Under the pieces are notes generated by a model. It saw only the letters and a program-made list of their open reading frames with translations, was not told the origin of the DNA and made no database searches. Of a DNA stretch of 61,938 nucleotides, positions 1,375 to 33,244 are shown one piece after another (position 1 is the first letter of the stretch; every line of letters starts with the position of its first letter). This DNA comes from an uncultured Planctomycetia bacterium. Its GTDB lineage: Bacteria; Omnitrophota; Gorgyraeia; Duberdicusellales; 4484-171. Both the position numbers and the translations under genes were made by a program. The stretch covers positions 83,613-145,550 of the forward strand of contig CAZVQU010000003.1 in assembly GCA_964629655.1 (NCBI GenBank), read 5' to 3'.

Positions 1375-2127
1375 ATGTCTGATTATTATACTCCAAAGAG
1401 AAGAAAAAATTTGTATGAATCTGGGGGCTCAACTCCTTTTAAGCTTAGCCGTTCAAAAATAGAACTTTTTATGCAATGCCCACAATGCTTTTATCTAGAT
1501 AGACGACTAGGTGTAGGTAGGCCGCCAAGTTATCCATATACGCTAAATAGTGCCGTAGATGCATTGCTTAAAAAGGAATTCGATATTTTAAGAGAAAATA
1601 ACGAGGCACATCCTTTGATGAAAAAATATGGCATAGATGCAGTGCCAGCGAAGCATAATATGCTTAAAGAATGGCGAAATAATTTTAAAGGTGTGCAGAC
1701 ATTGCATAAGCCAACAAATTTACTTGTGTTTGGGGCTATTGATGATTTATGGCAGAATTCTCAAGGTGAATATCTCGTAGTGGATTATAAGTCAACAAGT
1801 AAAAATGAAGAAATCAGTGCTCTTGATAAAGATTGGCAGATTACCTATAAAAGACAAATGGAAATATATCAATGGTTAGTTCGCCGGAATGAATTACCAG
1901 TATCTAATACAGGGTATTTTGTGTATTGTAACGGAAAAACGGATATAGATAAGTTTGATGGAAAGCTAGAGTTCGATCTTACATTAATTGCTTATAATGG
2001 AAGTGATAACTGGGTTGAAAATAAGATTAAAGAGATTTATGCATGCATTCAAAGCGAGGTTGTTCCCGAAGCAGATAGCGACTGTGATTTTTGTCGGTAT
2101 AGAGCAGCTGTTAAAGAAGTGACTTAA
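1375..2127 (+). CDS. PD-(D/E)XK nuclease, Cas4/RecB-like with putative Fe-S cysteines
   Basis: Motifs 'IDDL', 'VVDYKS' (D..D-x-K) and 'QMEIYQW' (QxxxY). Cysteines 'CPQC' near the N-terminus and 'CX12CDFC' at the C-terminus, as in Cas4-type nucleases. Confidence 0.7.
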   Translation: MSDYYTPKRRKNLYESGGSTPFKLSRSKIELFMQCPQCFYLDRRLGVGRPPSYPYTLNSAVDALLKKEFDILRENNEAHPLMKKYGIDAVPAKHNMLKEWRNNFKGVQTLHKPTNLLVFGAIDDLWQNSQGEYLVVDYKSTSKNEEISALDKDWQITYKRQMEIYQWLVRRNELPVSNTGYFVYCNGKTDIDKFDGKLEFDLTLIAYNGSDNWVENKIKEIYACIQSEVVPEADSDCDFCRYRAAVKEVT

Positions 2128-2144
2128 CGGATAACATTAATCCC

Positions 2145-2228
2145 TTCCTTTCCTCGGCAATCGCAGTCGTCCGGCTTCATCCCGATAAATCGGGATTACG
2201 CATCGTCCTTTATGCGCTTGCCTTCACC
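2145..2228 (+). repeat. ~80-bp structured direct repeat, copy A (partner at 5698-5775)
   Basis: Hand alignment to 5698-5775. It shares 'ttcctttc', 'tcggcaRtcgcagtcgtccggcttca' and 'tcgtcctttRtgcgMttgcctt'. An outer 10-bp stem pairs ggcaatcgca with tgcgcttgcc. The inner hairpin is atcccgat-aa-atcgggat. Confidence 0.65.
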
Positions 2229-2246
2229 CACCCAAAGCCAATCTAT

Positions 2247-2258
2247 GGGGGGGGGGGG
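2247..2258 (+). repeat. G12 homopolymer tract
   Basis: Twelve consecutive G counted directly, 14 nt upstream of the -35 box of the higB promoter, in an otherwise AT-rich context. Confidence 0.9.
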
Positions 2259-2272
2259 CGAGGAAAAAGCCC

Positions 2273-2301
2273 TTGACAATTTATTATACTTGTGTTATAT
2301 T
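2273..2301 (+). promoter_or_regulatory. sigma70-like promoter for the higB operon
   Basis: TTGACA (2273-2278), 17-nt spacer, TATATT (2296-2301). A small palindrome AATAC-aaaa-GTATT at 2317-2330 in the leader could be an operator. Confidence 0.55.
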
Positions 2302-2347
2302 ACCAATATGGGAGCAAATACAAAAGTATTATATTTAGTGAACACAT

Positions 2348-2635
2348 ATGAAACTATTAGGCAAGCAAATATTGCACAATTTCAAGGGGCAGTATGCCGA
2401 TGCTCGATCGCAAATTGAGTCATGGGAAGCAGAAGTCGAGGTAGCCCAATGGACCACGCCTCACGATCTAAAAAGTAGGTATCCAAAAGCGAGCCTTTTA
2501 GGAGATCAATTAGTGGTTTTTAATATTTGTGGAAATAGGTATAGATTGTTAACTCAGGTTAACTACAGGAATGGGATGGTATTGGTAAAGAAGATTGGCG
2601 CACATAAAGAATATGATAATTGGAATATAAAGTAA
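2348..2635 (+). CDS. higB: type II toxin HigB (RelE-fold mRNA interferase)
   Basis: 95 aa. 'VVFNICGNRYRLLTQVNY...VLVKKIGAHKEYDNW' parallels E. coli HigB 'YVFNVGGNELRVVAMVFF...IREVMTHKEYDFF'. Confidence 0.85.
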   Translation: MKLLGKQILHNFKGQYADARSQIESWEAEVEVAQWTTPHDLKSRYPKASLLGDQLVVFNICGNRYRLLTQVNYRNGMVLVKKIGAHKEYDNWNIK

Positions 2636-2643
2636 AGGTAAGT

Positions 2644-3855
2644 ATGCGTAGAATTAAAGTTATAAAAACTGAACAAGACTACCAGGACGCACTCAAATTA
2701 GTCGCGGAACTAATGAGTTGTGATCCAGATCCAGGCTCTGTTGAGGGAGAACAGCTCAGTCTTCTTAGTGCTCTTATTCAGGATTACGAAGCACGAGCAT
2801 TTCCAAAGACGCTTCCTAATCCCATTGAGGCGATTAAATTTAGAATGGAGCAAGCTGGTCTTAAGCCAGTAGATTTGGTACCTTATATTGGTAGCAGAAG
2901 TAGAGTGTCAGAGATTCTTTTAGGTAAACGCCAATTAACTCTTGATATGGTTAGATCATTGTCTGGTGGGCTTGGAATTCCTGCAGAGGTACTTATAAAG
3001 AAACCAGACATGGAAGAAAATTCGGAATATCAGAGTTGGGATAAGCGTCTAGTTACAGAAATGGAAGCACGGGATTATTTTGGTAAAGATTCAAAGAAAT
3101 ATAATAAAGTCGAACTCCTTAAAAATTTCTTTTCAATAATTGATTCTCCTGCACAACTTGTTGGAATGACAAGAAAATCTAGTTATAGATCTTCGCCGCT
3201 TACAGACAAGCATGCATTAGCTGCTTGGGCTGTTTGCGTCCTTAAAAAGGCTAAGAAAGTAAAAATATCAAAGAAGTATAAACACGGTATTATCGATCTT
3301 AATTTCATGCAAAAGCTGGTAAAGTTAAGTGTGAAGGAAAATAGTCCCATATTGGCTCGGGAGTACCTGGAAAAGTACGGAATCGTATTAATAATTGAGC
3401 CTCACTTTTCTAAAACTTACTTGGATGGGGCAGCTATTCTAATCAATAAAAATAATCCAATTATCGGCTTAACTCTTAGATATGACCGATTAGACAATTT
3501 TTGGTTTACATTAATGCATGAATTGGCGCACATTATACGACATTACGATAGTGGTATTAGTTTCTTTTACGATGAAATCGAAGGAATAAAAATAGTGGAT
3601 ATAGACGAGAAGGAACGAGAAGCTGATGCATTAGCCGAAGAGGCTATCTTGCCAAGAGCAAAATGGGAAGTCAGTCCAGCTAGACTCGTCCCTTCTTCTA
3701 TGGCGGCAAGTAGCCTAGCCCGGGAGTTAGGAGTGCATGTAGCTATTATTGCTGGTCAGATTAGACATAAAGGCAACAAGTACGTTTACCTGAATAAAAT
3801 CGTGAATGAAGCAAAGGTTCAAAAGTACTTTCCTAATGTGGTGTGGAAGAAATAA
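2644..3855 (+). CDS. HigA-like XRE HTH antitoxin fused to an ImmA/IrrE (COG2856, M78) zinc-peptidase domain
   Basis: The N-terminus 'GSRSRVSEILLGKRQLTLDMVRSLSGGLGIPAEVL' matches the HigA HTH. The C-terminus has 'FTLMHELAHIIRH' (HEXXH) and 'EREADALAEEAILP'. I chose the ATG at 2644 (AAAGG RBS, 8 nt after the higB stop) over the ORF-track start at 2620. Confidence 0.8.
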   Translation: MRRIKVIKTEQDYQDALKLVAELMSCDPDPGSVEGEQLSLLSALIQDYEARAFPKTLPNPIEAIKFRMEQAGLKPVDLVPYIGSRSRVSEILLGKRQLTLDMVRSLSGGLGIPAEVLIKKPDMEENSEYQSWDKRLVTEMEARDYFGKDSKKYNKVELLKNFFSIIDSPAQLVGMTRKSSYRSSPLTDKHALAAWAVCVLKKAKKVKISKKYKHGIIDLNFMQKLVKLSVKENSPILAREYLEKYGIVLIIEPHFSKTYLDGAAILINKNNPIIGLTLRYDRLDNFWFTLMHELAHIIRHYDSGISFFYDEIEGIKIVDIDEKEREADALAEEAILPRAKWEVSPARLVPSSMAASSLARELGVHVAIIAGQIRHKGNKYVYLNKIVNEAKVQKYFPNVVWKK

Positions 3856-3856
3856 T

Positions 3857-4972
3857 ATGCTTAGCTCAAAACATTACGTCCCAATATTGAAGTGGAAGCA
3901 TGCCGAGCAAAGTGCTTTAGCGGCATTAACAGATGAATATAAGGATCGAATATCACCGCTTATAGAGCTTGTTATGCCGAAACCAAAAAATTTATTTAAA
4001 GATGAAGAGAAGAAAATTAGAAAAACTCGAGAAGAGTTGTTCCAGGAATTAATTGCAGGGTTTAGAATAAAAAGAATTTTTAAGATTCCAGAGGAGATAG
4101 TTAAATCTTGGGGTGCTAGATTAGTCTTTATAGATTTTAGTCTACTGTACACCGTTGAATTAAAGGTGGAAAGCATAAAAAAAATTTTAGAAAAAGCGGC
4201 AGAGCTTGGTGCGAGACTCATACCTATTTTAAATCTAAGTGATAGCGATGGAATTAAAAAGGAAATCAGACAAGCCTTCAAAAAGCATGGCAATGGAATC
4301 TGTCTTCGGATTGTCTCAGGTGATTTAGAAGATATAAACAAACTCAACGATAAGCTTGCTGCTATTTTACAATATTTTGATACGAGCCGTGGTAATGTCG
4401 ACCTGTTAGTTGACCTTAAAGAGAATGGTGCAAATTATCGCAAATACCTCGATTTTAGTCAGGAAATCAAGGCTTTAGCTAAATGGCGAAATTTCATCTT
4501 TGCGTGTGGCACATTTCCAGAAGACTTATCTGAGTGTAGAGTTGATGAGCCCAAGCTTATTTCCAGGGTTGAATGGACGAGTTGGCTAGATATAAAAGAT
4601 GAGCAAATAAAAAGGGTTCCGACCTTTGCAGATTACACGATAAGAAACCCGATCTACAATGAAACACTACAGTTTTATCATGCTACCTCTAGTATCAAGT
4701 ATGCACTTGAAAGCGATTGGCTTATTCTCAAGGGCAAGGTAAAACAATTTAAAATATATTTAGCTAATGCAGCTCTGCTAGTAAAAAACGAAAAATTTTA
4801 TGGAGAAGATTTCAGTAGTGGGGATAAGTTTATTGCTGAAAAAGCAAAACACTTCGAAATTTATATTAGAAATCCGAATGTGAAAGGTACGGGCAATACT
4901 CCGATGTGGCTTACAGCACTTATAAACCACCACTTGACATTAACGGCATATCAGATCGCCAATCTCCCCTAG
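3857..4972 (+). CDS. Beta-family protein (PF14350-like; sce7725-like)
   Basis: The N-terminus 'HYVPILKWKHAEQSALAAL....RISPLIELV' matches my recollection of the Beta_protein/sce7725 signature. The ATG at 3857 lies 1 nt after the upstream stop. The ORF-track start at 3806 would overlap the upstream gene. Confidence 0.6.
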   Translation: MLSSKHYVPILKWKHAEQSALAALTDEYKDRISPLIELVMPKPKNLFKDEEKKIRKTREELFQELIAGFRIKRIFKIPEEIVKSWGARLVFIDFSLLYTVELKVESIKKILEKAAELGARLIPILNLSDSDGIKKEIRQAFKKHGNGICLRIVSGDLEDINKLNDKLAAILQYFDTSRGNVDLLVDLKENGANYRKYLDFSQEIKALAKWRNFIFACGTFPEDLSECRVDEPKLISRVEWTSWLDIKDEQIKRVPTFADYTIRNPIYNETLQFYHATSSIKYALESDWLILKGKVKQFKIYLANAALLVKNEKFYGEDFSSGDKFIAEKAKHFEIYIRNPNVKGTGNTPMWLTALINHHLTLTAYQIANLP

Positions 4973-5567
4973 AAATTAGCAATGCATTCCTTACTTTTTC
5001 TTTAAGGGTATCTGTATCTAATACATCAGCTAGTCTTTGGTATATGAATTCGCGTGGTTTAGAGCGTACCCCCTTTGCCTTACTTCGCTCTTCTAAAATT
5101 TGTAGTGCCTCTTCTTTCCATAGTAATCGCGCTATAGAAACTCCGATCTGATCTTGATTAGTTTCGGCTTCACGAATAGTTTGAAAAAATATCTCATGGT
5201 TTGCGTCAATTTTTGCAACAATAACACCCCACCAGTCAGGTACGATGTTTATTGCATTATATAAATGACGTTTTCCGACAACTAAAGTCAACTTATCGAA
5301 GACATCATTGAATTCGTTCATCTGTTCTGGTAATCGACTAAGTGTGTCACGATCACTTTTTATTTCATATCCATGCATAACACCATTAATAACAGCAATA
5401 TCTATTCTTGCTGTTCCGTGTCGCACACCTAATTCTTCAAAGATTTCTGCAGGGCGTTCGTTTTCTGAACGGTATTCTTCCTGATCTTTATCTAAAATAT
5501 TTCGGAGGGCTGCTCGTATGATTTTATCGGTTGTTGAAACCATTTTATGAAAAGTTTTTATTTTCAT
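4920..5567 (-). CDS. sce7726-family / MmcB-like PD-(D/E)XK fold protein
   Basis: 'ELGVRHGTARIDIAVINGVMHGYEIKSDRDTLSRLPEQ...VFDKLTLVVGKRHL' gives a D...E-I-K core. It matches my recollection of the sce7726 family signature. Its 3' end overlaps the Beta-family gene by 53 nt, convergently. Confidence 0.65.
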   Translation of the reverse strand: MKIKTFHKMVSTTDKIIRAALRNILDKDQEEYRSENERPAEIFEELGVRHGTARIDIAVINGVMHGYEIKSDRDTLSRLPEQMNEFNDVFDKLTLVVGKRHLYNAINIVPDWWGVIVAKIDANHEIFFQTIREAETNQDQIGVSIARLLWKEEALQILEERSKAKGVRSKPREFIYQRLADVLDTDTLKEKVRNALLISRGDWRSDMPLMSSGGL

Positions 5568-5697
5568 ATGTTAGGGTTAAGGAAACTATCTAAATATATT
5601 TTAGCATAAGTTAAGAGGATATAAAACAATTTTCTATATTAAATATGAACAAAGGAAATCGATTTTAATTTTTAATTTTGGGAGCACAATGCCAATT

Positions 5698-5775
5698 TTC
5701 CTTTCTCGGCAGTCGCAGTCGTCCGGCTTCAATCTTTCGGATTTCCGCTTCGTCCTTTGTGCGATTGCCTTTTTT
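5698..5775 (+). repeat. ~80-bp structured direct repeat, copy B (partner at 2145-2228)
   Basis: Same conserved flanks as copy A. The outer stem ggcagtcgca/tgcgattgcc is retained with different internal bases. The central part is divergent and shorter. Confidence 0.65.
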
Positions 5776-5909
5776 CATCCTGAAAGACTATAACACACCT
5801 TTTAGAATTTTTTCGCCGCCGTAAAATCCTGAGAGAAATCGAAGGGCCGATATAAAATAAAAGAATTATGGTTTAGGAAGTTTTTGTGAGGGAGAGGACG
5901 CTGATACCT

Positions 5910-5935
5910 CTTATCGGCGTACGTGAGCCGATAAG
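5910..5935. other. perfect 9-bp stem hairpin inside a GC-rich non-coding patch
   Basis: cttatcggc-gtacgtga-gccgataag read directly. It lies in the 5890-6100 patch, which I hand-counted at about 62% G+C over 5941-6100. Confidence 0.6.
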
Positions 5936-6183
5936 TGGGAAGAAAAGCCGAATCGTATGCTATTGGCATCGCCGCGAAGCGAGCGGCCTAGCGAGCGCCA
6001 AGTGAGGACGAGCCCCAGCGAGGACGAACGAAGCCTACACCAATCACCAAGCCCACCGTAGCCGACGTTCAGGAGGTGAAGGCGGGCGGGGGCATCATTC
6101 AAGACTGTGCTAGCCTATCTAGTTCTGTCTGGAATACAGTAAAAAGGAAGGGTTTGGAGAATTTGTAAAGAAGGAACCAAGGG

Positions 6184-6249
6184 TCAGCCGAATGTGCGGA
6201 TGTAGATTTTTTTCGCCGAATCTTGAAAATTCTTTGATTTTTTTGACAT
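6184..6249 (-). pseudogene. decoy copy of the miaB start (leader plus codons 1-21, then TGA)
   Basis: The reverse complement is identical to miaB 11014-11078. It encodes MSKKSKNFQDSAKKIYIRTFG and then reaches a stop formed with the first base outside the repeat. Confidence 0.85.
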
Positions 6250-6360
6250 TTTTGATTTTTTTTCGCCTCCGAAAAGAGAAAATTAAATGGGCCAAAAAGA
6301 GAAACAGAGATTCTTTTCTCAAGCAAAGCCCCGCCGATGGCTGGGGCGATTTTGATGTTT
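6185..6360 (-). repeat. 176-bp inverted repeat, left copy (IR-L)
   Basis: Exact reverse complement of 10903-11078, checked by hand in 10-nt blocks with no mismatch. Identity breaks at 6184/11079 and at 6361/10902. Confidence 0.95.
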
Positions 6361-6477
6361 CCGTTCTATTCGCCTATCCGGCTCACAGTCCGTGCCCCAA
6401 CCTTTGGTTGTTGCTAAAAAGCAGCCGAAGAGAGAAGAACCCCACCCCCAAGATTTATTATCCCCCAAACAATCATC

Positions 6478-6506
6478 TTGACAAAAACTGTCAGAAAGTG
6501 TAGTAT
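6478..6506 (+). promoter_or_regulatory. sigma70-like promoter of the element operon
   Basis: TTGACA (6478-6483), 17-nt spacer, TAGTAT (6501-6506), 10 nt upstream of the HTH gene ATG. Confidence 0.6.
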
Positions 6507-6515
6507 AGCAGTGTT

Positions 6516-6692
6516 ATGAAAAGATATAATGCGAGTCAACTTGCCCGAGAGCTATGTATCGCAAGGCAAACACTTTACTATTGGATAGAGAAGGGATGGG
6601 TAAAGCCTAAACGCGATTATCGCAAGTATCCTGTCTTCACTGAGGAAGATGTCAAAAAAATAAAAGCGTGGCGAGATAAATTAGAGGAGTAA
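6516..6692 (+). CDS. MerR/excisionase-like HTH protein (58 aa), possible recombination directionality factor or regulator
   Basis: Not in the ORF track because it is under 60 aa. My translation is MKRYNASQLARELCIARQTLYYWIEKGWVKPKRDYRKYPVFTEEDVKKIKAWRDKLEE. This fits a MerR-type N-terminal HTH pattern (G.l.P.R....R.Y...D). Confidence 0.55.
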   Translation: MKRYNASQLARELCIARQTLYYWIEKGWVKPKRDYRKYPVFTEEDVKKIKAWRDKLEE

Positions 6693-6695
6693 AAA

Positions 6696-7403
6696 ATGGT
6701 AACTTGTGTAATTACAGGATTAATTCTTACTTTGATAGCAACCGTACTTTTATTCGTTGGCTTAAAACATCTTCCTTGGAAGGCACAAACATGGAATGGG
6801 TCCAGTGGAAAAGAAAAAAGTTTTTTTAAATCAAGGCAAGCTTATTCGACAATCGGTTTTGGATTACTATTTTTTGGATTCTTATTGCAGCTGATCGGCG
6901 TGGTCGGTGATGCAAGCTCGGATTTAGGAAGCGAAATTAAAATAGGTATTATATTCATGGCTGTGACGATACTTTTTTTGATAGTTTATATTGCTATTAA
7001 GGGGATTACAGATTGGAGAATAATCGCTGGTTTGATATTGGTAGTTTTGGCATTGCCTGTTTTGCAATTGTTTAATTCAGGCAAGATTAGTGATCTTTTT
7101 CTTCAATATGGCGATAAAAAGATCAGGCTTGTCAACTCAAAATTACAGGAGATAAAGGTAATAGAGTCAAAGATAAAGAATATTTCAGAATCGGTTGCAA
7201 AACTCATAGCTGAAAATCAAGCCTGGACGATGCGTTTTGAGCCTGAAGGTGGAGCATTACGACGAATGCAAAATGCGAAACAAGAAATTAATGTTTTTTT
7301 AGATGAGGTAGGGACAACTAAAGAGCGCCGCGCGGAAATATTGGGTATTTTAAATGAAATGATTGAGCACGATATAAAAGAGGAAGAGAAGAAAAAGGAA
7401 TGA
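6696..7403 (+). CDS. hypothetical membrane protein (about 4 TM helices plus a C-terminal coiled-coil/charged tail)
   Basis: Hydrophobic segments at roughly aa 4-23, 52-70, 82-100 and 108-125. The C-terminal half is K/E-rich. The start lies 3 nt after the HTH gene stop. I recognise no family. Confidence 0.5.
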   Translation: MVTCVITGLILTLIATVLLFVGLKHLPWKAQTWNGSSGKEKSFFKSRQAYSTIGFGLLFFGFLLQLIGVVGDASSDLGSEIKIGIIFMAVTILFLIVYIAIKGITDWRIIAGLILVVLALPVLQLFNSGKISDLFLQYGDKKIRLVNSKLQEIKVIESKIKNISESVAKLIAENQAWTMRFEPEGGALRRMQNAKQEINVFLDEVGTTKERRAEILGILNEMIEHDIKEEEKKKE

Positions 7404-8107
7404 AAGTAGCTGTTTTTGCGGTTCAATATAAGATTAAATTTAATGAGTATCCTGCAAGAATTAACAAAGAGTTTCGTGACGGCTATAGAAATCCCTTGTT
7501 TGGCAAGCTAGTAGAACGCGCGTGTTCTGAAAAGGTTAATCTTGTGGTGTTGCCTGGTGGATTTTTTCGCACGGATTATCCTGACAAAATCGCTAAATAC
7601 TTAGAAAAACATCCCCCTAAAGTCAATGTGCTGGTAGGACGTGATAATGCTTCTGGTTCTAAATTAGAAGTTTTAATGGTTAGTCCAAGTGGTATGATTC
7701 GGAAAGAAATAGTTGAAGTTTACGACCAATACAAAAAGGCTAGAAATAATAAAAGTAAGCGAAAAGTTATTCTTCAGAGTATATGCGACAGACGTTTTCA
7801 AATTGATAATGAAATGTACACTGTTTTTTCTTGTGGCGATGTGCTTATTCCTGAGATACGAAAAGCGTCGCCCCTTACTTATTGTAAAGCTGCTTTTGTC
7901 TTGGCGCATTATACAGCCCGGAGGTTTTCATCTTCAATGCGAAAAATAGACATACCTATATTTCTTTCGCATCATCTTAAACATCCATGGATTTCACAAA
8001 ACTACGCGTATAATGGAAAATTCAAAAAAGATGACCCTAGACCTTTGAAGAGAATTTGCGGTGAATTTCAAGGATTAAAATGGGTCGCTAGGATTTATTC
8101 GGTTTAA
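7400..8107 (+). CDS. hypothetical protein, weakly carbon-nitrogen-hydrolase-like
   Basis: Overlaps the upstream stop by 4 nt (ATGA). 'MKVAVFAVQ....VNLVVLPGGFFRTDY' and 'TVFSCGDVLIPE' resemble nitrilase-superfamily strands. The usual Glu of 'PE' is Gly here. Confidence 0.35.
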   Translation: MKVAVFAVQYKIKFNEYPARINKEFRDGYRNPLFGKLVERACSEKVNLVVLPGGFFRTDYPDKIAKYLEKHPPKVNVLVGRDNASGSKLEVLMVSPSGMIRKEIVEVYDQYKKARNNKSKRKVILQSICDRRFQIDNEMYTVFSCGDVLIPEIRKASPLTYCKAAFVLAHYTARRFSSSMRKIDIPIFLSHHLKHPWISQNYAYNGKFKKDDPRPLKRICGEFQGLKWVARIYSV

Positions 8108-8152
8108 AAAAGACGAAATTGATGAGTGGATGAGGAGTAAAAGGAGAGATAA

Positions 8153-8749
8153 GTGATAGCAATTGCTATAATTAGTTTGTTGTTGGGTGTGATAGGCGTG
8201 GTTTTTACTGTCCCAAAATCACGCCATTATGTCCTGAGAAAGTTTAGTTTCTTGAACCCTAAGCTTAGTGCAAATTTTTCCATTTTAGAAAAAAAGACTG
8301 TAGTTCGAGGTCTGGAGATAAATCTAAATTTTGGGAATGGTTCCTTTAATAAAGTGGAGCAGTGTTTCTTTTTAGAATTTATTTTTTACAATAATACAGG
8401 AAGTAAAGTTCATATTTCAAATTTAAGAATAGCAGATGTATCTTCATTGTTGAAAATCAATCCAGAGGCGGATAAAAATATAAATGATAATTCTTACTCT
8501 CTAAAATTTATAGAGGAGGTAGGGTTTTTGAGGGGAGCTTATTCCAAAAGGGAAATAACCATAGACACTAATGCTAAGGTCAAAACGGGGATCCCTTTAT
8601 CAAATGAATACACGGAAAGTGATATGAAAACTTTGATTAAAAAACTAAAACAGCATACTAACAAGCCTAATGAGATAAAATATTTTGTTTTAAAATATTA
8701 TGCCAAGATAGGGGTAGACAAGTCCTTAGAAGTCGAATTTAATTATTAA
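8153..8749 (+). CDS. hypothetical protein with an N-terminal TM anchor
   Basis: GTG start. 'MIAIAIISLLLGVIGVVFTV' is a hydrophobic helix, followed by a ~175-aa soluble part with no motif I recognise. Confidence 0.45.
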   Translation: MIAIAIISLLLGVIGVVFTVPKSRHYVLRKFSFLNPKLSANFSILEKKTVVRGLEINLNFGNGSFNKVEQCFFLEFIFYNNTGSKVHISNLRIADVSSLLKINPEADKNINDNSYSLKFIEEVGFLRGAYSKREITIDTNAKVKTGIPLSNEYTESDMKTLIKKLKQHTNKPNEIKYFVLKYYAKIGVDKSLEVEFNY

Positions 8750-8859
8750 AAGGGGTTATTGCAATTACCCCGTTTGTGTAGATAAGGATATTAAAGCGAT
8801 TAATGAATGGTGCAATGCACTAAACGAGAAATAAAGTAATATATCGTTAGGTAAATTAT

Positions 8860-9429
8860 ATGAGTATAGACATTCGTATAAAAGTTAGGAATTGTATAGA
8901 AGTTATAAAAGAAAAGTTCGAGAATAATCACAATTTATTCTTGAGTGAAACAGATGTTGTTTGTCAGCTATACGCAGAGTTGTTAAAGGAAAGTGATTTT
9001 AGGCGAGTTCGTAGAACACGCTCTGGTCAGAGTACGATAGCATTGCACACCGAGGTTCCATTCTTCTCACGAGAATTGAGGGGAAGAGAAATCCCTATAC
9101 TAGATAGGTGGGTAGATATTGCAATACTGGATCAGTCTAAGATGACTTTTAATAGAAACGATTTTCGTCTAAGTAAATACTCGTCTAAGATTTATCGCTT
9201 TATAGAGGAAAAGTGTTGCATTGAAGTCAAATTAAATTCGATCGATTCTAAACGAAAAAGCCTAGATGGCATTGAGAGAGATTTAAGGAAGTTAAAGCTC
9301 TTAAATTCAGAAATAGCATTCATGTTGGCCCTAGACAAAAGAGCTCATTTGAATTCTAATGATATAGAAAGCTTAGAAAGCAAATATCCCGACGTGGAAG
9401 TTATATATGGAACACCAAGTAGCCATTAA
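8860..9429 (+). CDS. hypothetical protein with a PD-(D/E)XK-like motif arrangement
   Basis: 'ALHTEV', 'RWVDIAILD' and 'CCIEVKLN' give an E...D...E-x-K pattern. The 3' end overlaps the recombinase start by 23 nt. Confidence 0.4.
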   Translation: MSIDIRIKVRNCIEVIKEKFENNHNLFLSETDVVCQLYAELLKESDFRRVRRTRSGQSTIALHTEVPFFSRELRGREIPILDRWVDIAILDQSKMTFNRNDFRLSKYSSKIYRFIEEKCCIEVKLNSIDSKRKSLDGIERDLRKLKLLNSEIAFMLALDKRAHLNSNDIESLESKYPDVEVIYGTPSSH

Positions 9430-11086
9430 AGTTGCAATTTATATTCGTGTTTCGACTGAATATCAAGCGAAGGAAGGATATTCGCTTGAGGTGCAGAGAG
9501 AATATCTTGAGTCTTTTGCCAAGCGGGAAGGGTATGAAGTTTTTAAGGTTTATTGCGATGAGGGTATAAGCGCATATTCTACACATCGCCCTGCCTTACA
9601 ACAGTTACTTGCCGATGCAAAGGCTAAAAAGTTTGACCTTGTGTTGGTTCATAAAATTGATCGTTTCAGTCGTAACCTTAAAGACTTGCTTATGCTGGTT
9701 GATGAGTTATCTTTTTGTGGTGTTGGCTTCAAATCTGCAACTGAACCGTTTGACACAACGATATCAGCCGGAAAGCTGATGTTTCAGCAGCTTGGCTCTT
9801 TTGCTGAGTTTGAGCGTAATAGAATTGCAGAGCGTGTATTTCCAGGCATGGTAAAAGGTGTTCAGCTTGGCAATTGGCAAGGTGCACGATTTGTGCCGTT
9901 TGGTTATAGTTACAGTAAAGCCAAGAAGCTGTTAGAAATTGAGGAAAGGGAGGCTAATATCGTTAAGCTGGTTTACACGATGTATCTCTCCGGCAAAAGC
10001 TCTCGCGATATAGCTGCCTATCTTGACAGGAAAGGATACAAGACAAGAGCAGGCAAGCAATTTTACAACAAGTTTATTTGCGATGTACTTAAAAACCAGA
10101 TATACACTGGTAAAATTGTGTGGAATAAAAAACACTATGACAAGAATCAGAAGACCAAGAAGCATTACAAGTATGTCAGGAACGATCCTTCAAAGATTCT
10201 TATTGCACAGGGAAAGCATAAACCAATAATTGACGAAGATGATTTTATGCAAGTGCAGAAATTATTAGCAGATAAGAAGATAACATGGCGGCCACGAATA
10301 AGAAATAAAGAGTATCTTTTAACAGGTTTGCTTACTTGTGCGAAGTGTAGTCATAAATACAATGGTGTGTCTTCAATATCAAACCACCGAACGAATAAGA
10401 AGAAACGCTGGTATCGTTGTTCTGGACCTTATGCAAGCCATATCAAGTGTACAAATAGGTCAGTGAAGGCAGAGGATGTCGAGCCAGAGGTCACGAAGAT
10501 AGTTGCCCAGTTGGTTCAGAATGAGCGCTTAAAACAGAGCCGATGGACGACAGGGACTTTGCAAAAAGAGGCAAATTTCCCAGTTTTTGCTAAAAACGCA
10601 AAAACAGACCTTTCTGAGATTAAAGATAATCTAAAAATCAACCAAGAAAAGCAGTTAAAGCTTACCGACGCTTATCTGGAAAATTTGCTTGGTGAAGATG
10701 TATATCGTGATAAAATGGATGCTTTGCGCAGGGATGAGGACGAGATCAAAAAACTCCTTGCAGACATTGAGCTTCAAGGGATAGAGCGGGAACGCTCTGA
10801 GGGCTATGTTAACAGAGTAAAAGACTTTCTTGACGGCTACGATGACAGCAAAGAAAAAATAGATTTTGCTACCAAGAGAGAGCTGACTGGGCTGCTTTTT
10901 AAAAACATCAAAATCGCCCCAGCCATCGGCGGGGCTTTGCTTGAGAAAAGAATCTCTGTTTCTCTTTTTGGCCCATTTAATTTTCTCTTTTCGGAGGCGA
11001 AAAAAAATCAAAAATGTCAAAAAAATCAAAGAATTTTCAAGATTCGGCGAAAAAAATCTACATCCGCACATTCGGCTGCCAGATGA
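9407..11086 (+). CDS. large serine recombinase (resolvase domain + recombinase domain + zinc ribbon + coiled coil); the functional 3' end is uncertain
   Basis: 'VAIYIRVSTEYQ' holds the catalytic Ser, with 'HKIDRFSRN' downstream. The Cys cluster is 'CAKCSHKYNG...YRCSG...CTN'. The last 184 nt of the ORF run through IR-R and overlap the miaB start by 73 nt. Confidence 0.85.
   Translation: MEHQVAIKVAIYIRVSTEYQAKEGYSLEVQREYLESFAKREGYEVFKVYCDEGISAYSTHRPALQQLLADAKAKKFDLVLVHKIDRFSRNLKDLLMLVDELSFCGVGFKSATEPFDTTISAGKLMFQQLGSFAEFERNRIAERVFPGMVKGVQLGNWQGARFVPFGYSYSKAKKLLEIEEREANIVKLVYTMYLSGKSSRDIAAYLDRKGYKTRAGKQFYNKFICDVLKNQIYTGKIVWNKKHYDKNQKTKKHYKYVRNDPSKILIAQGKHKPIIDEDDFMQVQKLLADKKITWRPRIRNKEYLLTGLLTCAKCSHKYNGVSSISNHRTNKKKRWYRCSGPYASHIKCTNRSVKAEDVEPEVTKIVAQLVQNERLKQSRWTTGTLQKEANFPVFAKNAKTDLSEIKDNLKINQEKQLKLTDAYLENLLGEDVYRDKMDALRRDEDEIKKLLADIELQGIERERSEGYVNRVKDFLDGYDDSKEKIDFATKRELTGLLFKNIKIAPAIGGALLEKRISVSLFGPFNFLFSEAKKNQKCQKNQRIFKIRRKKSTSAHSAAR
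10903..11078 (+). repeat. 176-bp inverted repeat, right copy (IR-R), containing the miaB leader and codons 1-21
   Basis: See IR-L. The copy ends after the second base of the Cys22 codon of miaB. Confidence 0.95.
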
Positions 11087-33169: not shown

Positions 33170-33244
33170 GGCCCCATCGTCTAGCACGGCCTAGGACACA
33201 TGGTTCTCAGCCATGAGACACGAGTTCAAATCTCGTTGGGGCTA
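33170..33244 (+). tRNA. tRNA-Glu (anticodon CTC)
   Basis: 75-nt cloverleaf folded by hand. Acceptor GGCCCCA/TGGGGCT has a G1-U72 wobble, and the D arm is GTCT/GGAC. The anticodon stem CATGG/CCATG carries the loop TTCTCAG. The T arm is ACGAG-TTCAAAT-CTCGT. No CCA is encoded. Confidence 0.9.

Follow-up and report, generated by a model that had tools for sequence, protein, structure and literature searches.

The window analysed here, by which we mean the whole 61,938-nucleotide (nt) stretch at positions 83,613 to 145,550 (forward strand) of contig CAZVQU010000003.1 from an uncultured Planctomycetia bacterium (GTDB lineage Omnitrophota; assembly GCA_964629655.1), carries near its start four closely packed genes: a higB-like gene, a gene encoding a HigA-type helix-turn-helix (HTH) domain fused to an M78-family metallopeptidase, a Beta-family gene, and a cII-like gene of the sce7726 family that is transcribed towards the other three. 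We can say with considerable confidence that this locus is a PD-lambda-2 family member of a four-gene subtype. It links PD-lambda-2 to the gop-beta-cII system of P4, and the subtype is widespread and not a new kind of system. Its genes and associated sites, with positions counted from the first letter of the window and protein lengths in amino acids (aa), are as follows:

2273-2301, plus strand: putative sigma-70-like promoter of the higB-like/fusion/Beta operon, TTGACA-17-TATATT with TG, 11/12 matches
2273-2295 and 2320-2342: 23-nt arms, 74% complementary, of an imperfect inverted repeat across this promoter
2348-2635, plus strand: higB-like gene (PD-lambda-2 A), 95 aa
2644-3855, plus strand: gene for the HigA-HTH/M78 peptidase fusion (PD-lambda-2 B), 403 aa, ATG at 2644; HigA part at about 2644-3000, M78 domain at about 3373-3747, HEXXH at 3517-3531
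3857-4972, plus strand: Beta gene (PD-lambda-2 C; P4 beta homologue), 371 aa
4920-4972: 53-nt 3' overlap of the Beta and cII-like genes, from the open reading frame (ORF) coordinates
4920-5567, minus strand: cII-like/sce7726-family gene, 215 aa, convergent with Beta
5598-5625, minus strand: promoter-like site 5' of the cII-like gene, TTTATA-16-TAAAAT with TG, 9/12, a weak consensus match

The higB-like stop codon is followed after 8 nt by the fusion ATG, and the fusion stop codon after 1 nt by the Beta ATG; the ORF map agrees in all gene coordinates, in both spacings and in the length of the overlap with a first-pass annotation that had been made from the sequence alone. The fusion could alternatively start at an in-frame TTG (2620). 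For Beta, automatic gene calls choose an upstream ATG (3806), and the start at 3857 is favoured by the family consensus 'MF.SKHYVPILKWK', which begins there, and by the Pfam profile, whose position 1 aligns to residue 7. The near-consensus site at 2273-2301, whose first position is also the start coordinate given in the first-pass annotation, is the best-scoring promoter-like sequence in 2000-6600 and lies 47 nt 5' of the higB-like ATG, and the inverted repeat across it (2273-2342) is a candidate operator for the HigA HTH, a weak one because the region is AT-rich. The same scan for promoter-like sites found none between fusion and Beta, and that of the cII-like gene lies 31 nt upstream of its start codon at 5567. 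No convincing intrinsic terminator was seen between the convergent Beta and cII-like genes, and a search for an operator motif common to the higB promoter and the cII upstream region yielded nothing beyond a 9-mer where the sequence is AT-rich. Twelve consecutive G at 2247-2258, just 5' of the operon promoter-like site, may reflect a slippage-prone tract or an artefact of assembly.

Hidden Markov model (HMM) searches supported the HigB, HigA-M78, Beta and sce7726 assignments of the first-pass annotation (PF09907, PF06114, PF14350 and sce7726_fam; E-values are given in brackets from here on). The fusion matched the PADLOC model PD-Lambda-2_B over positions 1-398 of 402 (1.3e-143, 477 bits) and belongs to a family of more than 6000 proteins in 501 clusters at 50% identity (E<1e-30). 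Its HigA part is alignable over its full length: a profile of 44 homologues matched the E. coli HigA structures 5ycl and 5ifg over residues 6-117 (7e-16), and with plasmid HigA proteins that stand alone the first ~118 residues can be aligned at 32-50% identity. The M78 part (residues 244-368) matched Pfam Peptidase_M78 PF06114 above the curated cut-off (1.2e-8) and resembles, more weakly, CapP (7t5t, 1e-3; PADLOC capP, 1.5e-5). The HEXXH motif and the downstream Glu of the M78 metal site are both present, within 'HELAH' and 'EREAD', and H292, E293, H296, H300 and E324 are invariant across 44 diverse homologues.

The HigB-like protein matched Pfam HigB_toxin PF09907 (8.3e-27) and PADLOC PD-Lambda-2_A over 1-93 of 94 (1.2e-38), as well as solved E. 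coli HigB (5ifg/5ycl, 3e-4), with which it has the motifs VFN.GN..R and HKEYD in common. R66, H86 and Y89 are kept in at least 87% of 84 homologues. Because the catalytic residues of E. coli HigB were not found in the papers searched, the call that the HigB-like protein may be active draws on family conservation only. With this qualification, the predicted catalytic residues appear intact in the peptidase, in the cII-like protein and in the HigB-like protein.

Beta matched Pfam Beta_protein PF14350 (1.8e-53), PADLOC PD-Lambda-2_C (2.5e-34) and, partially, PADLOC 'beta' (5.6e-8). Its AlphaFold2 model (mean predicted local distance difference test, pLDDT, 89.7; predicted template modelling score, pTM, 0.90) is a high-confidence prediction of a TIM-barrel-like fold. 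The first-pass annotation had seen a sce7725/sce7726 pair in the two last genes, and only the second name survives: the sce7725_fam profile (NF033831) gave no match at E<=10 to the Beta proteins of the window, P4 or E. coli, and its match to Rac beta (0.099) spans just 35 residues.

The cII-like protein is a clear member of NCBIfam sce7726_fam NF033832 (5.8e-48, 163 bits, cut-off 70), and so is P4 cII (2.5e-44, 151 bits), whose RefSeq name is 'sce7726 family protein'. It also matched PADLOC 'cll' (4.7e-26), a model that, like 'beta', represents the gop-beta-cII system of P4, and, among precomputed Pfam assignments, PF26915 Phage_P4_cII, and D56, E68 and K70 are invariant from the window protein to P4 cII. 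Searched with Foldseek against the PDB, its AlphaFold2 model (pLDDT 78.6) found 3dnx first (1.6e-4), followed by SfsA, Hjc and splicing endonucleases, and against BFVD several viral proteins named MmcB-like (1e-4 to 5e-4). We take 3dnx to be a member of the MmcB-like family. There was no match of the protein to Pfam MmcB-like PF06319 at E<=1, and a cII profile search of PDB sequences found nothing. The nuclease fold of the first-pass annotation's sce7726/MmcB-like call holds in the model, as a predicted PD-(D/E)XK fold with a D...(D/E)xK motif, and the MmcB-like resemblance lies at the level of the fold only.

Co-occurrence was surveyed from both ends of the locus. A search of GTDB species genomes anchored on the fusion matched at least 584 genomes, and the analysis covered the best 80 loci. 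At least 77 of these 80 have HigB upstream of the fusion, and in 11, including the eight closest to the window, Beta and a convergent, overlapping cII gene follow; Beta is present without cII in another 11, with 4-5 more cut by a contig end. The 11 genomes with all four genes come from Patescibacteria, Dehalococcoidia, Planctomycetota, Anaerolineae and Thermodesulfobacteriota. In a metagenome survey anchored on cII homologues 49-89% identical to that of the window, an overlapping convergent Beta was found in all 77 assessable loci, and HigB and the fusion were also present in 45 of the 46 loci with enough sequence. The four genes thus co-occur elsewhere, as the first-pass annotation would have it; they travel together across phyla, and the cII-like gene belongs to the unit. 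The convergent 3' overlap recurs in the 11 genome loci, in the 77 metagenome loci (mostly ~50 nt), in 75 loci on viral contigs and in Escherichia phage Rac-SA53, and the sole exception among the convergent Beta/cII pairs examined is P4, with a 27-nt gap.

Within the four-gene genome loci it is Beta, among the four proteins, that has diverged furthest from its window counterpart (11/11), with 28-46% identity as against 40-82% for the other three in ten of the 11 loci; in the remaining one, L038, the cII-like protein is at 32%. The HigA domain is the most conserved part in 9/11 (50-82%; L013-L022, L038 and L044, compared with window positions 2348-5567).

Searching 5,426 complete E. coli genomes with positions 2348-5567 by blastn gave no match, and E. 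coli loci of the PD-lambda-2 type were reached via a viral-contig relative. In three of them a threshold as loose as E<=1 returned no cII-like ORF within 4.5 kb. Convergent with Beta, these E. coli loci carry a gene that varies from one to the next, encoding a hypothetical protein (L173, 6971-7924), a SIR2-family protein (L174, 6784-8301) and a DUF6119 protein (L175, 6958-8607); all three loci adjoin integrases, and the slot occupied elsewhere by cII appears to be variable in E. coli. Neighbour-joining (distance) trees of the fusion and of Beta, which are indicative only, the proteins being divergent, returned the same groups, namely two-gene loci, three-gene loci including those of E. coli, and four-gene loci including the window, and both place the window clade as sister to the three-gene clade of E. 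coli. In the Beta tree the window protein groups beside free prophage Betas and not beside E. coli PD-lambda-2 C. What is new, then, is that cII is carried by a sister clade across many phyla, while the E. coli loci are without it.

The two parent systems of this arrangement are both known from earlier work, and P4 gop-beta-cII reportedly goes back to Ghisotti in 1990. As in the window, where the slot is taken by the HigB-like gene and the HigA-M78 fusion, P4 has a toxic gene directly upstream of beta and then a convergent cII; the D..E.K motif is common to both cII proteins, and the window Beta, of the same family, is 25% identical to P4 beta. The two differ in what fills the upstream slot: a phmmer search with P4 Gop of loci L001-L172, which did not take in the window itself, matched P4 only. 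They differ also in their 3' ends, 27 nt apart in P4 and overlapping by 53 nt in the window, and in an extra C-terminal tail of ~60 aa in P4 cII. Nor does the locus lie in a P4-like satellite hotspot, its neighbours being HerA, a Cas4-like nuclease, a MerR-like gene and a serine recombinase, with no P4 genes. The P4 system confers protection from lambda and P1, with Gop being toxic when beta is missing (Rousset et al., 2022; PMC9122126), and the system is triggered by the phage protein orf184.

PD-lambda-2, which PADLOC and DefenseFinder list as 'PD-Lambda-2', is a three-gene abortive-infection system recovered by functional selection from E. coli ECOR42, which protects against lambda-vir when cloned as three genes (Vassallo, 2022; PMC9519451). 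There, the HigA-peptidase protein is toxic alone and is rescued by the HigB-like protein, and the P4-beta-like protein is dispensable for neutralisation and needed to defend against lambda-vir (PMC9519451). The locus matches all three PADLOC models of this system, has the gene order and tight spacing of the E. coli loci, and is likewise set in a mobile or defence island; it differs in having a fourth, cII-like gene, which neither the original three-gene definition nor the three E. coli loci include. The first-pass annotation had taken the four-gene combination to be undescribed, a view that gives way here, as genes 1-3 are published PD-lambda-2 and genes 3-4 are the beta and cII of P4's gop-beta-cII. 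Of the papers searched, those that mention PD-lambda-2 added no mechanism, made no link to cII and did not describe a four-gene subtype, and a paper on RelE/ParE defence toxins did not cover PD-lambda-2.

Three other kinds of system resemble parts of the locus. Free-standing Beta-cII pairs, such as that annotated as 'beta' and 'CII phage-like protein' in Rac-SA53, have the same convergent layout with overlapping 3' ends and differ in having no HigB or fusion in any of 75 viral pairs, when the window has both. Type II HigBA (E. coli YgjN/YgjM, PDB 5ifg) resembles the first two genes in its toxin-first order, its HigB_toxin protein and a HigA HTH alignable over its full length, whereas the window 'antitoxin', in place of a small labile HigA, is a 403-aa protein with an intact predicted metallopeptidase, and the tested E. 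coli homologue has the two toxicity roles the other way round. Finally, ImmR-ImmA, DdrO-IrrE and CapH-CapP combine an XRE-class HTH protein with an M78 HEXXH peptidase, in the last case with weak similarity to the window's, whereas in the window both lie in one polypeptide beside a gene for a partner of the RelE superfamily.

Taken as a whole, the locus is rather likely to be an integrated mobile anti-phage abortive-infection module, a four-gene PD-lambda-2 subtype. How such a module would work can be put forward only tentatively, and the specific scheme that follows has, in our estimate, somewhat less than an even chance of being right. A single promoter (2273-2301) would drive the higB-like, fusion and Beta genes (A, B and C), with the cII-like gene (D) transcribed towards this operon, a layout equivalent to that of P4 gop-beta-cII with Gop swapped for the HigB/HigA-M78 pair. 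By analogy with the E. coli homologue, A and B would hold each other inactive in a toxin-antitoxin-like complex, B being toxic alone, and the HTH of B may autoregulate the operon. Beta could act as an infection sensor or coupler that, upon infection, would tip the balance between A and B and thereby let the peptidase, the HigB RNase or both halt growth of the infected cell. The cII-like protein, with its apparently intact D-E-K motif, may be a second effector or a regulator alongside Beta, and the convergent overlap could couple its expression to that of the operon.

Several observations weigh against this picture. Each half of the locus also occurs by itself: 47 of the 80 genome loci have HigB and the fusion only, and Beta-cII stands alone in prophage loci. 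The identity of the window proteins to their E. coli counterparts is 40-41% for the fusion, 22-27% for HigB and 25-27% for Beta, and, the window proteins being so distant from those tested, the polarity of toxicity may not transfer. E. coli PD-lambda-2 defends against lambda-vir without cII, and the part given to cII here is putative. For Beta, the basis of a sensor role is its rate of divergence and E. coli genetics only, and Foldseek searches with its model returned only generic (beta/alpha)8 barrels and no specific enzyme or solved relative. The promoter and the operator are consensus matches only.

The occurrence of each half alone can be read in another way, namely that Beta-cII is the real defence unit, with cII as effector and Beta as sensor or antidote, and that HigB/HigA-M78 is a portable control cassette, a single-chain switch resembling CapH-CapP or ImmR-ImmA whose peptidase would be activated by a phage or DNA-damage signal to raise downstream expression. 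Among assessable viral-contig loci anchored on cII, 75 of 78 have an overlapping Beta and none has HigB or the fusion, which indicates that Beta-cII is also a free-standing prophage module, as in Rac-SA53; in such loci the nuclease-fold protein is the only candidate effector. Three viral contigs (L008, 3961-7120; L010, 877-4037; L011, 1-3210) carry a GNAT-like gene, an M78 protein without HTH, Beta and a convergent overlapping cII, in this order, so that an M78 protein precedes Beta-cII and is linked to it even where HigB and HigA are missing. Two-gene modules of HigB and fusion often have, 4-73 nt downstream of them and in the same orientation, defence genes that are unrelated to one another. 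The gene 3' of the module encodes an AAA_21 ATPase in L054, RadC-JAB in L031, Abi_alpha in L073, a type I HsdR in L087, AbiEi in L063, an ORF of ~1000 aa in L067 that groups with that of L087, and an ORF without Pfam match in L028. These two kinds of locus together suggest a modular design, in which a toxin-like gene and an M78 protein would form the front end and Beta(-cII) one common back end, and there are hints that the HigB and fusion pair may be a portable front end for varied effectors. The resemblance of the M78 domain to CapP would also suit a control cassette. Adjacency within defence islands is, however, no proof of regulation, and no recurrent alternative third gene family was found after the modules that have HigB and fusion only, where 28 of 30 clusters were singletons and the other two were pairs. 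Moreover, the E. coli fusion behaves like an effector, being toxic on its own and countered by the HigB-like protein, and the E. coli system defends without cII. We consider this reading unlikely.

The model of the first-pass annotation, in which HigB is the toxin and the fusion an antitoxin that cleaves itself upon a signal, thereby freeing HigB to cut mRNA and derepressing Beta and the nuclease, seems to us quite improbable. Much in the window would suit it, since the Arg, His and Tyr of the HigB-like protein are kept, the HigA part is complete and the peptidase site appears intact, and there are precedents in ImmA-ImmR, IrrE-DdrO and CapP-CapH. That a protease might be joined to an Xre antitoxin beside a RelE-type toxin had, with this same logic, already been put forward in 2009 (Makarova et al.; PMC2701414). 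The one experiment on a homologue contradicts the polarity that the model assumes: in E. coli PD-lambda-2 toxicity comes from the fusion on its own, with the HigB-like protein as the neutraliser. Nor does derepression of a downstream Beta/nuclease pair fit the layout: Beta is not a separately repressed unit, because it shares an operon with the fusion gene and begins 1 nt beyond the stop codon of that gene, and no operator-like motif shared with the higB promoter was found at the promoter region of the cII-like gene.

We give still less credence to the view that a HigBA-like pair with a peptidase-extended antitoxin and a separate Beta-cII module are chance neighbours without functional link. 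Both halves are indeed common alone, and defence islands pack unrelated systems tightly. Chance, however, would have to account for a fusion-Beta spacing of 1 nt with no promoter between the two, for an arrangement kept in 45/46 metagenome loci and across phyla, for the congruent fusion and Beta trees, and for the requirement for Beta in E. coli PD-lambda-2 defence.

That the locus is an addiction module only, stabilising its island by post-segregational killing with no anti-phage role, is highly improbable: its toxin-antitoxin-like architecture and the serine recombinase that borders the island would fit, but both parent systems were found through phage protection, and no part in addiction readily suggests itself for Beta or cII.

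To return to the preferred reading of an integrated four-gene module, a broader scheme can be offered as a doubtful possibility: Beta and cII might be the ancestral sensor/effector core of a modular abortive-infection family whose front ends are Gop in P4, HigB with HigA-M78 in the window and a GNAT-like protein with M78 on viral contigs. The window form would then be the complete one and the three-gene PD-lambda-2 of E. coli a derivative after loss of cII, the whole forming one family with gop-beta-cII and a common Beta-dependent trigger mechanism.

Around the four genes the window has the character of a mobile island. Upstream, 3-2127 opens with a HerA helicase of anti-phage type, of which the window start leaves only the C-terminal half (PADLOC HerA, 5.8e-81), followed by genes for a 72-aa KTSC-domain protein and a 250-aa Cas4-like PD-(D/E)XK nuclease; these three probably make up another defence system, with its first gene beyond the window. 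Downstream, 5568-6515 (~950 nt) has no convincing ORF and a G+C content of 0.47, as against 0.35-0.39 around it. A tRNA scan and a gathering-threshold Rfam scan of the whole window, together with a permissive Rfam scan of 5500-6600, gave an unrelated tRNA-Glu at 33170 and chance-level hits only. Beyond this, 6516-11086 comprises a MerR-like HTH gene of 58 aa, four ORFs (235, 235, 198 and 189 aa) without Pfam or PADLOC match, and a 559-aa large serine recombinase whose ORF overlaps the start of a miaB-like gene, with miaA and hflX, likewise core genes, following. This segment looks like the border of a mobile island, of which the four ORFs could be cargo.

PD-lambda-2 and gop-beta-cII are both validated systems that have been catalogued separately, and the present locus and its relatives show that they have a Beta(-cII) core in common, with the HigB/HigA-M78 pair, Gop and the GNAT/M78 pair filling the same slot upstream of it. 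In annotation, a lone 'cll' match beside a PD-Lambda-2 call is to be counted as part of that unit. The locus is a modest step in a known field, and it gives a lead on how Beta-containing defence systems work, in the form of a testable guess that Beta may be their common sensor or coupler and cII a nuclease partner.

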